This document shows positions 24,398-31,313 of a DNA stretch of 64,000 nt, piece after piece. Below the pieces are notes generated by a model that searched no databases, was not told where the DNA came from, and saw only the letters and a program-made list of their open reading frames with translations. The translations under genes and the position numbers were made by a program. The stretch comes from Candidatus Omnitrophota bacterium (GTDB taxonomy: Bacteria; Omnitrophota; Gorgyraeia; 2-01-FULL-45-10): the NCBI GenBank assembly GCA_028699255.1, contig JAQVUX010000002.1, positions 11,711 through 75,710 of the forward strand. The letters are read 5' to 3'. Each line of letters begins with the position of its first letter. The stretch's first letter is position 1.

Positions 24398-26194
24398 ATG
24401 ATAGATTTTTTACCAAAACAACTTTTTCTGTTCGATCCTCTCGCTGTATTTTTCCTCGCAGTCATCGCTCTGGTGTGCGTTCCTTCGGCGATATTCTCAA
24501 TCGGTTATATGCGCGAAGATTCACTAAGAAAGAGGGCTGTCTCCTGGGCGCTTCTGTCCGTATTTGTCCTGTCGATGTGTTTTGTAGCGACAGCGGGGAA
24601 CCTCTTCTCCTTCCTTATATTCTGGGAACTGATGTCGCTGGCGTCCTATTTTCTCGTTGTATCCGATTTTCGGCACGAAAAGTCTGTGCGCGCCGGAACG
24701 ATATACCTTATCATGACTCACGCGGGCACCGCTTGCCTTATGGCCGCGTTCTTCATCCTGTATAACCACGCGGGATCTTTTGATTATAACGCGGTCAAGG
24801 AAGCCGCGTTATTGCTTGCGCCGCAGGAACGCAATATAATATTTCTGCTGTTATTTACCGGTTTTGCCGTAAAAGCGGGCGTGGTGCCATTTCATATATG
24901 GCTACCTTACGCGCATCCTCAGGCCCCGAGCCATGTTTCGAGCATCATGTCGGGCGTTATGATAAAGATAGCGGTATATGGCATGATCAGGTTTTTTGTA
25001 ACGCTCCTTGGGCCAGCTCCCGCCTGGTGGGGCGCCGTCATCCTCGCGTTTGGAATAATCTCATGCCTTGCCGGCGTGATCTATGCCCTCATGGACCAGG
25101 ACCTTAAAAGGTTGCTTGCGTACAGTAGCGTAGAGAATGTCGGTATAATACTTCTATGCGTTGGCACCGCGATATTCTTTAACTCCCTCGGCGTAAATGC
25201 GGTTGCGGCACTTGCCATGTGCGCAGGGTTATATCATCTGGTCAATCACGCGTTATTCAAAGGCCTGCTTTTCTTATGCTCGGGGAGTATATTCAAGGCG
25301 ACTCATCTGCGTGACATGGAGAAGATGGGCGGCCTCATAAAGACCATGCCTCTTACGGCGATATTTTTTCTTATAGGCGCGATGGGTATCTCCGCACTGC
25401 CGCCTTTAAACGGCTTCGTCGGCGAATGGCTTGCATTCCAGGCGTTTTTTGCAGGAGTTTTACAATCGCAGGGCGCGGTTAAGCTGGCCATGGTATTGGC
25501 CGGCGCGGCGCTGGCCTTGACCAGCGGACTTGCGGCGGCATGTTTTGTCAAAGCGTTTGGTATAACTTTTCTCGCCCTGCCGCGCAGTCCGCGCGCCGAA
25601 GGCGCAAGGGAGGCGGGATTTGCGATGAAGGCGGGGATGGCGCTTCTGGCCGTGCCGGTAGCGCTCTTTGGTATCGGCGCCGGATTTATAGCCCCCGTTA
25701 TTTTAAAGATCTCCGGCGCGGTGCTCGGTATCGAAAGTATTCAGCCGCCGTTTTACATGGTCTGCGTACTGCCGCCCGTTATCGCTGTTGCGCTTGCTTT
25801 TATCGGGATAGCGGTTTTCTTATGGTTCAAGTTCGGCCTGCGCCGCGCGCAGGTCAGTTGCAACACATGGGATTGCGGATATTACTCCATAGACAGCCGC
25901 AATGAATACACCTCGACCGCTTTTTCGAAACCTTTCAGGATCGCGTTCAGCTTTTTCCTTTTGCCGTACCGTAAAAGCGAAAAGATAAGAGATTCTTTTT
26001 ATCATGTGCGTACGTTTACATATCAGACGCACACTACCAAGGTATTCAAACACTATTTTTATGAGCCGGCGGTGAATCTGATATACTCGGCCGCGTTCAA
26101 AATGCGGAAGCTTCAACCCGGCAGTATTCATTTGTATATCCTGTACGTTTTTATTACTCTGGCGGGCCTTTTGGCCTTTATGGGAATGTTTTAA
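24398..26194 (+). CDS. NuoL/MrpA/HyfB-like antiporter-type membrane subunit (EhrA-like)
   Basis: About 15 TM segments. Proton-pumping antiporter-type blocks (WLPYAHPQAPSHVSSIMSGVMIKIAVYG, LLAYSSVENVGIIL). Confidence 0.8.
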   Translation: MIDFLPKQLFLFDPLAVFFLAVIALVCVPSAIFSIGYMREDSLRKRAVSWALLSVFVLSMCFVATAGNLFSFLIFWELMSLASYFLVVSDFRHEKSVRAGTIYLIMTHAGTACLMAAFFILYNHAGSFDYNAVKEAALLLAPQERNIIFLLLFTGFAVKAGVVPFHIWLPYAHPQAPSHVSSIMSGVMIKIAVYGMIRFFVTLLGPAPAWWGAVILAFGIISCLAGVIYALMDQDLKRLLAYSSVENVGIILLCVGTAIFFNSLGVNAVAALAMCAGLYHLVNHALFKGLLFLCSGSIFKATHLRDMEKMGGLIKTMPLTAIFFLIGAMGISALPPLNGFVGEWLAFQAFFAGVLQSQGAVKLAMVLAGAALALTSGLAAACFVKAFGITFLALPRSPRAEGAREAGFAMKAGMALLAVPVALFGIGAGFIAPVILKISGAVLGIESIQPPFYMVCVLPPVIAVALAFIGIAVFLWFKFGLRRAQVSCNTWDCGYYSIDSRNEYTSTAFSKPFRIAFSFFLLPYRKSEKIRDSFYHVRTFTYQTHTTKVFKHYFYEPAVNLIYSAAFKMRKLQPGSIHLYILYVFITLAGLLAFMGMF

Positions 26195-26197
26195 ATC

Positions 26198-29193: not shown

Positions 29194-30777
29194 ATGAATA
29201 CCCAAGATTATATAAAGAACATTCTGGATTCCGCGAATATCAAGACGTCCGGGTTTGATATGTTGCGCCGGGACGAGTTGTATCTTACCGTTTCCGCCGC
29301 GGATTTTGCCGGAACATGCAGTCTCATGCATAAGAAGCTCGATTCTCCGGTGATGACATTTTTTGCCGAGGACCTGCGCGAGGCTTCGGGCGTCTTCGCG
29401 CTTTATTGCGGTTTCTTAAGCCTGCAGACGCGTTCCTGGATATTCGTCCGGCAGAATATCGCGCAGGATGATCCGGCGTTCGATTCGCTTGCGAAGAATA
29501 TTTATTCCGCCAGCCTGTTTGAGCGCGAGATAAAAGAGATGTTCGGGATAATGCCATCGGGCAACCCCGACTTAAGAAGGCTTAAGCTTCACGACGAGGT
29601 CTGGCCCGAAGGATATTACCCGCTTCGTAAAGATTTTATCGCGCCGCGCGATCTCCCCGCACCTGGTCCGGCGTATAGATTTAAACGCGTAGAAGGGGAA
29701 GGCATATTCGAGATTCCAGTCGGGCCGGTGCATGCCGGTATTATAGGGCCGGGCCATTTCAGGTTCAGCTCGGCGGGGGAACCGATAGTAAATCTGGAGT
29801 TGCGGCTCGGGTGGACGCATAGAGGCATCGAGAAGCTTCTCGAAGGTATGGATACCTCGGAGGCGGTAAAGATATTTGAACGCGTAAGCGGCGACACGGC
29901 ATTTGGCTACAGCCTCGCTTTCTGCCGTTCCGCGGAAAAGATATTTGGCATAGACGTTCCTGTAAGGGCGCAACTGCTTCGCGTGATATACCTGGAGCTC
30001 GAACGTTTGTATAATCACGCAAACGACATGGGCGGCATCGCCCTCGATGTAGGTTTCAGTTTCCCCGCGCAATTCGCGAGCCTGATAAAAGAATCGATAC
30101 TCCAGCTCAATCAGAAAATATCCGCTTCCCGATATCTTAAAGGTATTAACGCAGTCGGGGGGATTTTACAGGATATCGATAAAAATAAAGCCGTAATTAT
30201 CCGCGAGGCGCTTGGGAAGATAGAAAAAGATATCTGTTCTCTGGAAGATATGCTTTTAACGAGCGTCTCTTTTATGGATCGTGTCGACGCGACGGGGATT
30301 TTGCGCGCCAATACAGCCCGCGACCTCGGCATAACTGGTGTAGCCGCGCGCGCAAGCGGCATTGCGCTGGATTTGAGAAAGGCCTTGCCGGGTATTTACG
30401 ATACCCTATCTTTCGCCGCGGCGAAAGAGCATGCGGGCGATGTCGCTTCGCGCCTTAGGGTAAGAATCGCCGAATCGAAAGAGTCGTTTAGCCTTATTAG
30501 CCAATCCTTGGAAAAACTCAGTTCATGCAGTCCGGAAATCAAAGCTACGGGGCAAGTGAAGGAAGGGATTGCATTCGGCTATGTCGAGGCATGGCGCGGA
30601 GCTGTACTGGTCTGGATGAGGTTGGATCGCGACGGTAAGATAGCCAGATGCAAGATCGTGGATCCTTCTTTTCATAACTGGGACGCTCTCTCGTTTGCCG
30701 TTTTGGGAAACATTATTCCCGATTTTCCTTTATGCAATAAAAGTTTCGATCTATCATACGCGGGTAATGACCTATGA
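29194..30777 (+). CDS. Fused NuoC-NuoD / [NiFe]-hydrogenase-large-subunit-like protein lacking all four Ni-Fe-ligating cysteines (EhrL-like)
   Basis: N-terminal NuoC block (LFEREIKEMFGIMPSGNPDLRRL). NuoD/HycE-like body (VGPVHAGIIGPGHFRF). At the hydrogenase L1 CGxC position it reads ERVSGDTAFG. At the C-terminal DPCxxC position it reads DPSFHNW. Confidence 0.8.
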   Translation: MNTQDYIKNILDSANIKTSGFDMLRRDELYLTVSAADFAGTCSLMHKKLDSPVMTFFAEDLREASGVFALYCGFLSLQTRSWIFVRQNIAQDDPAFDSLAKNIYSASLFEREIKEMFGIMPSGNPDLRRLKLHDEVWPEGYYPLRKDFIAPRDLPAPGPAYRFKRVEGEGIFEIPVGPVHAGIIGPGHFRFSSAGEPIVNLELRLGWTHRGIEKLLEGMDTSEAVKIFERVSGDTAFGYSLAFCRSAEKIFGIDVPVRAQLLRVIYLELERLYNHANDMGGIALDVGFSFPAQFASLIKESILQLNQKISASRYLKGINAVGGILQDIDKNKAVIIREALGKIEKDICSLEDMLLTSVSFMDRVDATGILRANTARDLGITGVAARASGIALDLRKALPGIYDTLSFAAAKEHAGDVASRLRVRIAESKESFSLISQSLEKLSSCSPEIKATGQVKEGIAFGYVEAWRGAVLVWMRLDRDGKIARCKIVDPSFHNWDALSFAVLGNIIPDFPLCNKSFDLSYAGNDL

Positions 30778-31313
30778 ACTTTAGAATATTTAAAAGTAGC
30801 ATCGAAAAGGGCAGAGTTACGTTAAAACTCGACGAGGCCGGTATTGTCGCACTGCCCGAAATCGAAAATATCGGCCGGGATCTTAAAAGAGCTATTCACG
30901 CGAAGTTCGGCAGGTCGTTTCACATCCGCGAAGTCGATACCGGTTCATGCGGCGCATGCGAATCGGAGATAATCGCGTGCTCTAATCCTTTGTACGACAT
31001 ACAACGCTTCGGCATAGATTTCGTGGCCTCTCCACGCCACGCGGACGCGCTTCTTGTTACCGGGCCCGTTTCTAAGAACATGATCCTTGCCCTGAAGAAA
31101 ACATATGAGGCGATGCCTGAGCCGAAATTTGTGATTGCCCTGGGAGATTGTGCCAAGGACGGAGGGGCATTCAAAGGATCTTATTATACCCGCGACGGTG
31201 TAGAAAATATCCTGCCTGTTATTTTGCACATCCCTGGATGCCCACCGGATCCATTAACGATAATGCGTTCACTCCTGAGTTTTATGCACGATTTTCCTTG
31301 TCGCCGGGCATAA
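30774..31313 (+). CDS. NuoB/HycG-like small subunit with intact 4-Cys [4Fe-4S] site (EhrS-like)
   Basis: GSCGACESE, GDCA and PGCPP motifs. Confidence 0.85.
   Translation: MNFRIFKSSIEKGRVTLKLDEAGIVALPEIENIGRDLKRAIHAKFGRSFHIREVDTGSCGACESEIIACSNPLYDIQRFGIDFVASPRHADALLVTGPVSKNMILALKKTYEAMPEPKFVIALGDCAKDGGAFKGSYYTRDGVENILPVILHIPGCPPDPLTIMRSLLSFMHDFPCRRA

Follow-up and report, generated by a model that had tools for sequence, protein, structure and literature searches.

The Ehr (energy-converting or Ech-hydrogenase-related) family was named in 2005/2013. In Geobacter, the GSU0739-0745 locus encodes EhrA (NuoL-like), EhrC (HyfE-like), EhrL and EhrS (PMC7894505), and the six-gene cluster Desru_3260-3265 of Desulfotomaculum ruminis was also called Ehr in a study where most Ehr were noted to be without the [NiFe] cysteines (PMC3569383). 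Ehr has further been reported in published genomes of Riflemargulisbacteria and Saganbacteria (PMC6349859), comammox Nitrospira, ammonia-oxidising archaea (AOA), candidate phyla radiation (CPR) bacteria and Methanomassiliicoccales, with its function described as unknown throughout. Here we describe the ehrABCDLS operon of Candidatus Omnitrophota, located at positions 24398-31313 on the forward strand of a 64-kb stretch of contig JAQVUX010000002.1 (the window). The locus almost certainly encodes an Ehr complex and not a hydrogenase. This identity follows from the protein families and gene order, from HycE, HycC, HycD and HycG/MbhJ as the top solved relatives, from the superposition of EhrL on HycE with a template-modelling score (TM-score) of 0.94, from the closest homologues, which are proteins of Omnitrophota metagenome-assembled genomes (MAGs), and from the recurrence of the six-gene order in related loci. 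An earlier reading of this DNA from its letters alone (the sequence-only reading) had assigned the operon to Ehr and had called the function of Ehr unknown. Both statements hold, as the subunit set and order, the lost [NiFe] ligands and the kept [4Fe-4S] ligands match the published Ehr descriptions, and every Ehr paper that we examined leaves the function unknown.

On its own, the operon is an expected member of an already named family and is no surprise. What is added here are the selection values, a conserved site that replaces the lost [NiFe] site, the invariant channel residues, the stub of a ferredoxin domain and relatives that are without the last cluster. Our literature search found no paper in which Omnitrophota are paired with Ehr, where the Omnitrophota genome paper (PMC8542988) was covered in part; the part covered describes Rnf, Sud, HppA and true hydrogenases.

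Six forward-strand open reading frames (ORFs) were confirmed, with intergenic gaps of 1-4 nt and a 4-nt overlap between ehrL and ehrS. The ORF calls, Pfam and NCBIfam agree with the six genes, the order and the coordinates of the sequence-only reading, and the family order was observed to be HyfB/NuoL-like, HycD/NuoH-like, HyfE-like, HyfF/NuoM-N-like, a NuoC plus HycE/NuoD-like fusion, and HycG/NuoB-like:

24383-24387, forward strand: ribosome-binding site GGAGG, read in the sequence 10 nt 5' of the ehrA ATG
24398-26194, forward strand: ehrA, HyfB/HycC/NuoL-like antiporter-like subunit, 598 aa (Pfam PF00361 Proton_antipo_M, 5.5e-61)
26198-27082, forward strand: ehrB, HycD/NuoH-like membrane anchor, 294 aa (Pfam PF00146 NADHdh, 3.4e-30)
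27087-27725, forward strand: ehrC, HyfE-like membrane subunit with a NuoK-like C-terminal half, 212 aa (NCBIfam HyfE, full-length, 5.5e-22)
27729-29192, forward strand: ehrD, HyfF/NuoM-N-like antiporter-like subunit, 487 aa (Pfam PF00361, 1.6e-50; NCBIfam HyfF, 445 bits)
29194-30777, forward strand: ehrL, fused NuoC and HycE/NuoD-like large subunit, 527 aa (Pfam PF00329 Complex1_30kDa, PF00346 Complex1_49kDa and a weak PF00374 NiFeSe_Hases match)
30774-31313, forward strand: ehrS, HycG/MbhJ/NuoB-like small subunit, 179 aa (Pfam PF01058 Oxidored_q6, 6.6e-28)

EhrA scored 614 bits against the NCBIfam HyfB model, which is under the cut-off of 667 bits, and EhrS scored 123 bits against the NuoB subfamily model, which is over the cut-off of 116 bits. 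Since the NuoB subfamily model is the only one for which a curated NCBIfam cut-off was reached, the six proteins are considered as divergent members of their families. The top matches in the PDB were HycC for EhrA (7z0s_C, 3.3e-71), HycD (7z0s_D, 1.9e-20) and MbhM for EhrB, and MbhJ (3.7e-34) and HycG (1.4e-31) for EhrS. EhrC has a weak Pfam Oxidored_q2 match, and a sequence search of the PDB found no solved homologue of it. A longer EhrA start, or a frameshift hiding its N-terminus, was considered and ruled out by the in-frame stop codons upstream, which make an earlier ORF start impossible, by the good ribosome-binding site and by an equally short N-terminus in six members of the Omnitrophota clade. 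An Rfam search 5' of ehrA returned nothing, and a promoter and terminator scan gave signals that were not above shuffled sequence, with the exception of a hairpin at 23959-23991.

The E. coli Hyf/Hyc systems (7z0s) provide the best or near-best solved relatives of the Ehr subunits, namely HycE, HycC, HycD and HycG. Based on the NCBIfam Hyf matches and on what we take to be the gene order of the hyf operon, the ehr operon is collinear with hyfB-C-E-F-G-I and corresponds to hydrogenase-4 minus hyfD, with hyfH cut to a stub. Unlike Hyf/Hyc, the window is without the [NiFe] ligands, HyfD, the HycF/HyfH clusters, the HycB/FdhF partners and nearby hyp or hycI genes, where no hycI gene was found near the cassette. 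Three features of group 4 [NiFe]-hydrogenases are absent from the window: the four Cys ligands, a Glu in the beta1-beta2 loop of the large subunit and the HycF/NuoI-like 2x[4Fe-4S] relay.

The large subunit EhrL has HycE as its top PDB match (7z0s_E, 1.9e-70, phmmer), and its AlphaFold2 model (mean predicted local distance difference test score, pLDDT, of 91.3) superposes on HycE with a root-mean-square deviation of 2.3 Å. Three of its segments correspond to the beta1-beta2 loop, L1 and L2:

29722-29763, forward strand: beta1-beta2 loop GPVHAGIIGPGHFR, residues 177-190, with the proton-relay Glu replaced by Gly185
29881-29898, forward strand: L1 remnant RVSGDT, residues 230-235, with HycE Cys241 replaced by S232 and Cys244 by T235
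30745-30774, forward strand: true L2 remnant FDLSYAGNDL, residues 518-527, at the protein C-terminus, with the HycE cysteines replaced by S521 and G524

In the phmmer alignment, L1 of HycE (RVCGICGFAH) pairs with RVSGDTAFGY of EhrL and L2 of HycE (LDPCYSCT) pairs with FDLSYAGN, leaving none of the four [NiFe] cysteine ligands in EhrL. The loss of the L1 and L2 cysteines that had been read from the letters alone is thus confirmed by alignment to HycE. The placement of L2 at DPSFHNW (residues 490-496) did not survive, as this segment pairs with RAATYANW of HycE and not with L2. Since the true L1 and L2 positions are both Cys-less, the claim that no [NiFe] ligand is left stands despite the misplaced L2 motif. 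The end of EhrL presumably lies close to the point of proteolytic maturation of HycE (HycI processing). A hidden or shifted [NiFe] site was also considered and rejected on the basis of the HycE alignment and because the seven Cys residues of EhrL (42, 72, 244, 348, 445, 486 and 514) are all located off positions S232, T235, S521 and G524.

EhrL was compared with 130 full-length relatives, which were taken from a library that had been clustered at 50% identity. No [NiFe] cysteine was found in 95 of them, and all four were found in 22. The Cys-less relatives share a common L1 of the form R-[IV]-S-G-D-x-x-x-x-H and a C-terminus of the form F-N-L-S-Y-[AS]-G-N-D-L. In an alignment of 29 diverse Cys-less homologues, S232, G233, S521, Y522 and D526 were observed to be invariant and D234 and G524 nearly so. 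As judged from these alignments, the old active site is rebuilt and not eroded, with an SGD / (N/D)LSY(A/S)GNDL site conserved family-wide in place of the cysteines. The literature places the branch of Cys-containing relatives beside the group 4f [NiFe]-hydrogenases. These six-gene relatives, for example Desru_3260-3265 (PMC3569383), share the A-B-C-D-L-S order with the window and are the closest true-hydrogenase-like sequences. Unlike the window, they keep the four Cys (L1 RxCGxCxxSH, L2 FELCY(A/S)C) and the loop Glu, and their small subunit usually carries a fused HycF-like domain with 8-9 Cys.

In [NiFe]-hydrogenases, the Glu of the beta1-beta2 loop serves as a proton relay to the active site. 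This loop is nearly wholly invariant in the 29-sequence alignment (G177, P178, H180, A181, G182, I184, P186, G187 and F191) and accounts for one of the longest invariant stretches of the family alignment. The Glu itself (E-P-G-H-F-R) is kept by every examined relative outside the Omnitrophota clade, whereas it is found in none of the 120 closest homologues, about 115 of which have Gly at position 185. In addition, the residue before LSY is Asp and not Asn in about 86% of these 120 homologues. A strict charge swap between the two positions (Glu185 to Gly with Asn519 to Asp) was considered and holds only loosely, as about 16 of the 120 clade members pair a non-Glu residue at 185 with Asn519.

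Tyr87 and His38 of Thermus thermophilus Nqo4 are quinone-binding residues, and in the alignment to 2fug_4 they correspond to Gly233 and Ile184 of EhrL. These positions bear on the proposal that Ehr is a quinone-reducing 'missing link' to complex I, where the chamber would bind a membrane quinone that takes electrons from the EhrS cluster. NuoD-type profiles do score well on EhrL (211 bits for the NCBIfam NuoD model), and an intermediate position of Ehr in the evolution of complex I has been discussed (PMC4758237). Furthermore, Ehr shares with complex I (NuoB, C, D, H, K, L, M and N) a homologous core, the beta1-beta2 loop and a charged membrane axis that has been implicated in coupling. However, the quinone ligands are replaced, EhrS has a CxxC motif instead of the tandem CC of N2, NuoE, F, G and I are missing, and Pfam and NCBIfam found no NuoA- or NuoJ-like gene in the cassette. 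Published Omnitrophota MAGs are also described, in the part of PMC8542988 covered, as fermenters without a complete tricarboxylic acid cycle or succinate dehydrogenase. We consider quinone reduction by this complex to be very improbable.

The small subunit EhrS carries the predicted ligands of a single cluster together with a remnant at its N-terminus:

30774-30821, forward strand: Cys-free N-terminal stub MNFRIFKSSIEKGRVT, ~16 residues, which in alignments matches the start of long EhrS proteins
30942-30959, forward strand: GSCGAC, predicted cluster ligands C59 and C62 (aligned to MbhJ GSCNGC and HycG GGCNGC)
31143-31154, forward strand: GDCA, predicted cluster ligand C126 (aligned to MbhJ/HycG)
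31233-31247, forward strand: PGCPP, predicted cluster ligand C156 (aligned to MbhJ/HycG)

The four NuoB-like cysteines that the sequence-only reading had listed as retained pair with the ligands of the proximal cluster in MbhJ and HycG. The C59-x-x-C62 arrangement is the hydrogenase-type CxxC of MbhJ and HycG, in contrast to the tandem-cysteine coordination of N2, which is a feature of complex I NuoB (PMC8165549). Alignment with long EhrS proteins shows that the window EhrS lacks a ferredoxin core of ~80-100 residues that contains 8 Cys. In one such long protein (L051), residues 1-98 match HycF (7z0s_F, 3.5e-15) and residues 120-259 match HycG, which makes the long-EhrS domain HycF-homologous in the single case tested. 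The first ~16 residues of EhrS are therefore read, on this alignment, as the leftover N-terminus of a HycF/NuoI-like domain after clean deletion of its ferredoxin core. An absence of any NuoI-like subunit had been claimed earlier. This is correct for a separate gene in the window, but the module is not simply absent, as its Cys-free stub is fused to EhrS.

To place EhrS within the family, we used a pattern scan of 185,579 species genomes, which gave at least 600 matches; the best 80 loci were retained for all counts out of 80. Short EhrS proteins with the four cluster Cys, as in the window, were found in 43/80 loci, and 29/80 have an N-terminal domain carrying at least 4 Cys, where the Cys count of this domain across the family is 8-10, 6, 4-5 or 0. 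All four cluster ligands are present in 72/80 loci and throughout the Omnitrophota clade. At least seven of the 29 long proteins pair a Cys-less EhrL with at least 8 Cys in this domain, and most show two 4Fe-4S motifs. For example, an 8-Cys EhrS domain was observed beside a Cys-less EhrL in Firmicutes and Vicinamibacteria. Such pairs are predicted to form a full three-cluster wire which ends at a site without [NiFe].

The remaining eight of the 80 loci (L038, L052, L064, L067, L071, L072, L076 and L082) are missing three or four of the cluster ligands. They have TCDD, DCGD, TEGD, SEGD or DTDN at the ligand positions, with 0-1 of the four ligands left. Four of the eight are CPR-type loci, and the others belong to a Thermoleophilia MAG, a 'Bdellovibrionales' MAG and two Methanosarcina, among them the complete genome of Methanosarcina sp. 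Mfa9 (EhrS gene at L082:11779-12294). These loci keep the SGD/LSY motifs and the beta1-beta2 loop of EhrL and the canonical channel residues of EhrA and EhrD. On the basis of their motifs, they are complex-I-like cassettes with no predicted redox cofactor. We found no mention of this cofactor-free state in the Ehr literature surveyed, and it may have been described elsewhere.

The residues of the membrane arm were scored as column counts on MAFFT alignments of 67 EhrA and 76 EhrD homologues. In EhrA, E77 of transmembrane helix 5 (TM5), K159 (TM7), H284 and K288 (TM11) and E343 (TM12) are invariant in 67/67 homologues, and K190 (TM8) is found in 61/67. In EhrD, E135 (TM5), K222 (TM7) and H337 and K341 (TM11) are conserved in 75-76 of the 76 homologues, and the TM12 position is Glu or Lys in all of them. 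K253 (TM8) and K396 (TM12) of the window EhrD are minority states, where the majority of relatives have N and E, respectively. Since the channel residues of both subunits are kept near-universally, no property of the family is more strongly conserved than ion translocation. EhrA has 76 residues before the TM5 Glu, whereas the EhrA of other phyla almost always have 133-150, with ORF starts in related loci being mechanical calls. We take EhrA to be short by ~60-70 N-terminal residues, roughly its first two helices.

A rival reading takes Ehr as a redox-independent, Mrp-like cation/proton antiporter. EhrL and EhrS would then be a cap or gate on the EhrB channel, and in Omnitrophota the lone cluster would respond to redox state or oxygen and turn transport on or off. 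The Mrp Na+/H+ antiporter (7qru, 6z16) has two antiporter-like subunits with the same Glu/Lys/His set, MrpA is among the PDB matches, and Mrp could be a model for how the cofactor-free Ehr members work. The eight cluster-poor loci, including the complete Methanosarcina genome, argue for such a function, as do the stepwise decay of the fused ferredoxin domain across the family (8 to 6 to 4 to 0 Cys), the loss of the catalytic Glu in the Omnitrophota clade and the absence of conserved redox partner genes near the best 80 loci, where an ArsR/SmtB-type regulator is the only specific recurrent neighbour. However, the four Cys are kept in the other 72 loci and in the whole Omnitrophota clade across deep divergence, and ehrS has a ratio of nonsynonymous to synonymous substitution rates (dN/dS) of 0.11. 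Many Cys-less EhrL also have an intact 8-Cys ferredoxin domain as their partner, an arrangement that is hard to explain if no electrons flow. Furthermore, known Mrp antiporters need no NuoH/NuoD/NuoB-like cap and have none, whereas the Ehr cassette is without MrpB/C/E/F/G homologues. A redox-independent antiporter is the main rival explanation for the window operon, somewhat less probable than the reading preferred below.

All six ehr genes are under strong purifying selection and form a functional unit. Measured against the strain at locus L087, whose EhrL is 99% identical, dN/dS is 0.072 for ehrA, 0.049 for ehrB, 0.016 for ehrC, 0.068 for ehrD, 0.045 for ehrL and 0.111 for ehrS. The six reading frames are intact across the clade; the cassette is intact despite differing flanks in relatives with 55-77% EhrL identity, and it is whole in relatives down to 47-60% identity. 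These values contradict the view of Ehr as a non-functional relic, which was put forward in a 2026 Geobacter paper that treats Ehr as being under relaxed selection (PMC13194489). A decaying remnant, or a true hydrogenase with displaced ligands, is scarcely credible here. A weak NiFeSe_Hases match at EhrL residues 210-275 is the sequence feature in favour of the latter, but none of the seven EhrL Cys is at an L1 or L2 ligand position and no hyp genes are present in the window. The dN/dS range of 0.016-0.11, the intact frames and the conservation of the replaced site itself speak against a remnant.

The 120 best EhrL homologues are 55-99% identical to EhrL, and those that are named are Candidatus Omnitrophota MAG proteins; they were found annotated as 'NADH-quinone oxidoreductase subunit C' or 'Ni,Fe-hydrogenase III large subunit'. 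The best 80 loci cover more than 15 phyla, which include the bacterial groups Omnitrophota, Saganbacteria, Nitrospirota, Acidobacteriota, Rokubacteria/Methylomirabilota, Verrucomicrobiota, Actinomycetes, Firmicutes and CPR bacteria, and among the archaea AOA, Methanomassiliicoccales and Methanosarcina. The gene order is A-B-C-D-L-S or S-A-B-C-D-L in nearly all sufficiently long loci among these 80. A search seeded with a Deferrimicrobiaceae EhrL matched Methylomirabilota/Rokubacteria proteins only. Two Nitrospirota loci (L034:4772-19841 and L080:1-13919) were observed to carry two complete, divergent Ehr cassettes in tandem, one with an SGT-type and the other with an SGD-type L1 remnant.

In a neighbour-joining tree rooted with HycE and without support values, the four-Cys EhrL branch first and all Cys-less EhrL lie beyond them. 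The window EhrL falls within the Cys-less group alongside Saganbacteria, Nitrospira, AOA, CPR bacteria and Methanomassiliicoccales; the tree includes no labelled Geobacter EhrL. The Omnitrophota group together with one Saganbacteria locus (L012) and one 'Planctomycetales' locus, where L012 is the nearest non-Omnitrophota relative in this tree. In six members of the Omnitrophota clade, the TM5 Glu of EhrA is preceded by 76-78 residues, and in a seventh by 96; the clade is further marked by Lys at TM8 and TM12 of EhrD and by a short EhrS with all four Cys. The Ehr of Geobacter and others is like that of the window in having NuoL-, NuoH-, HyfE- and NuoM/N-like subunits with a Cys-less large and a cluster-bearing small subunit. 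The window differs from these Ehr, with Geobacter compared by description, in the Glu185 to Gly change, in mostly having Asp before LSY, in an EhrA that is ~60-70 residues shorter, in the EhrD Lys at TM8 and TM12 and in the short EhrS.

We tentatively favour, at a little less than an even chance, the reading in which Ehr of the window is a minimal complex-I-type redox-coupled ion translocator. The EhrS [4Fe-4S] cluster would sit atop the EhrL/EhrS/EhrB chamber and would take its electrons straight from a soluble donor of low potential, most plausibly ferredoxin. Deletion of the NuoI/HycF-like relay would leave its docking face exposed. The electron would pass to a small acceptor in the former [NiFe] chamber, which would be lined by S232-G233-D234 and D519-L-S521-Y522-A-G-N-D-L. 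The resulting change in charge or protonation may be relayed via the beta1-beta2 loop (GPVHAGIIGPGHFR) to EhrB and EhrC and then through the Glu/Lys/His chain that spans EhrD and EhrA, so that H+ or Na+ would cross the membrane. A reverse mode, where an ion gradient pushes electrons uphill, would also be possible. In this scheme the gene identities, the cofactor ligands present and absent, the conservation and the selection are observed, and the donor, the acceptor, the direction and the coupling ion are inferred.

The same logic has been described for MBH, MBS and complex I (PMC8165549). The P. furiosus MBS/MBX system (6u8y) is likewise a hydrogenase-derived, [NiFe]-less, complex-I-like ion pump, and its MbsL, MbsJ and MbsH are detectable homologues. 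MBS is a precedent both for chemistry at a proximal [4Fe-4S] cluster, which there acts as the catalyst itself in place of a [NiFe] site, and for coupling through three loops (PMC8165549). Unlike the Ehr of the window, it has a two-cluster NuoI-like MbsN, a full Mrp-type module and a proximal cluster with three Cys (PMC8165549), whereas the six-gene cassette of the window has four cluster Cys and contains neither a relay subunit nor Mrp B/C/E/F/G-like genes.

Redox-coupled ion translocation is consistent with the kept channel residues of EhrA and EhrD, with the EhrS ligands kept in 72/80 loci and with the three-cluster wires beside Cys-less EhrL. It is also consistent with published Omnitrophota MAGs, which the covered part of PMC8542988 describes as ferredoxin-based fermenters with Rnf and Sud, and with the NfnAB/Sud-like pair at 14535-16831 of the window itself. 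Several observations weigh against it. The equivalents of the quinone ligands Tyr87 and His38 are absent and no acceptor could be named; the proton-relay Glu, which every other branch of the family keeps, is absent here; and no donor module or recurrent redox partner gene was found beside the cassette in the window or in the best 80 loci. Furthermore, the eight relatives without EhrS cluster ligands keep the SGD/LSY site and all channel residues, so that at least part of the family works without electron transfer and the conserved EhrL site cannot be purely redox. The Ehr literature surveyed holds no experimental evidence for any Ehr (PMC6349859, PMC7894505, PMC13194489).

The search for a donor within the window was based on Pfam annotation of forward-strand ORFs of at least 150 aa, of two genuine-looking reverse-strand ORFs (LptF/G-like and phosphoribosyltransferase-like) and of a few shorter ORFs. 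No NuoI/HycF-like, NuoE/F/G, Fdh or Hyp gene was found among the annotated ORFs of the 64-kb window, and no C..C..C...C ferredoxin motif was found in window ORFs of at least 50 aa. The absence of NuoE/F/G and of hydrogenase maturation genes noted by the sequence-only reading is therefore upheld within the window. Clustering of the flanking genes of the best 80 loci likewise gave no recurrent redox partner (fdh, nuoEF or ferredoxin), and the neighbours were otherwise of generic families. The only specific recurrent neighbour is an ArsR/SmtB-like helix-turn-helix gene of ~120 aa, which was observed in 14/80 loci (L007, L025, L026, L032, L040, L045, L046 and L049 among them), with 12/15 copies located upstream on the same strand; it is absent in the window.

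These searches also bear on a formate-linked complex, in which the electrons would come from a formate dehydrogenase encoded elsewhere, as has been proposed for Riflemargulisbacteria and Saganbacteria. Such an FDH-Ehr was hypothesised for Saganbacteria (PMC6349859), to which the nearest non-Omnitrophota relative in the tree (L012) belongs, and proteomics found higher levels of the Geobacter Ehr subunits during growth on formate (PMC7894505). The cassette also descends from the Hyf/Hyc, formate hydrogenlyase type. However, no fdh, nuoE or nuoF gene occurs in the 64-kb window or among the recurrent neighbours of the best 80 loci, and the HycF-like relay that joins HycB/FdhF to HycG in formate hydrogenlyase is deleted here. 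A formate-linked role is considered improbable, and a redox-coupled translocator with a soluble donor remains the reading that we prefer.

Across the family, four cofactor stages were observed: [NiFe] with three clusters, no [NiFe] with three clusters, one cluster (the window) and none (CPR bacteria and Methanosarcina). On a more speculative view, which we regard as rather unlikely as a whole, the Ehr family sheds its redox cofactors yet keeps the ion-translocation machinery, the SGD / (N/D)LSY(A/S)GNDL pocket may be an ion or proton gate, and the Omnitrophota complex may be a cation/proton transporter with a sensing or gating cluster. If true, Ehr would be a natural example of complex-I architecture that runs without electron transfer. 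Ehr is very widespread, as it includes nitrifiers, acidobacteria, CPR bacteria and methanogens among the matches of the genome scan, and it is routine in metagenome papers. Since Ehr is placed between energy-converting hydrogenases and complex I, its mechanism bears on the origin of the coupling of redox reactions to ion pumping. The Omnitrophota Ehr is about the smallest form that still holds a cofactor, with six subunits, one Fe-S cluster and no relay, [NiFe] site or catalytic Glu. Its cofactor-free cousins provide a natural comparison that could separate redox-driven pumping from plain antiport.

The 5' flank of the operon has a TetR/OEP/HlyD/MFS efflux set, an LpxD-like gene and the strong hairpin at 23959-23991. 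A 54-aa treble-clef zinc-finger ORF (24019-24183, reverse strand; Pfam zf_Tbcl_2, 6.6e-20) is divergent from ehrA. The hairpin has a 14-bp stem, follows the zinc-finger ORF and could terminate both this ORF and the LpxD-like gene.

On the other side, 22 nt past ehrS, positions 31336-38900 encode a PAS protein, a FecR-like protein, an RsbW-like anti-sigma kinase, a STAS antagonist, MlaE/F/D and a CHASE2-SpoIIE phosphatase. Here a partner-switching module and a lipid-transport system are interleaved. The block is present in L087 but not in L088 (73% EhrL identity), where the upstream synteny is kept, and it is also missing from three other Omnitrophota loci. A functional tie between the ehr operon and this block was therefore found to be unsupported, and the block was left out of the Ehr system.

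Further from the operon, the NfnAB or sulfide-dehydrogenase (Sud)-like pair at 14535-16831 (DHODB_Fe-S_bind with NAD_binding_1, and Fer4_20 with Pyr_redox_2) is located between malic-enzyme and glutamate dehydrogenase genes, an arrangement which fits a ferredoxin/NADPH-based metabolism. Positions 43331-44600 contain four tRNA genes (Arg-TCG, Leu-TAG, Gly-GCC and Lys-CTT) interspersed with five copies of a palindromic element of ~42 nt (AAAACTTTTCGAAGAAAGTTTTC...GGTCCTGGAGTTT). A 138-nt repeat (two copies, 96%) follows tRNA-Gly and occurs again about 90 nt downstream of tRNA-Lys. Finally, two adjoining acetate-kinase-family genes were observed at 1002-4489, the second of which is without the N-terminal ~80 profile positions, and the pair is preceded by a 405-aa ORF that has no Pfam match.

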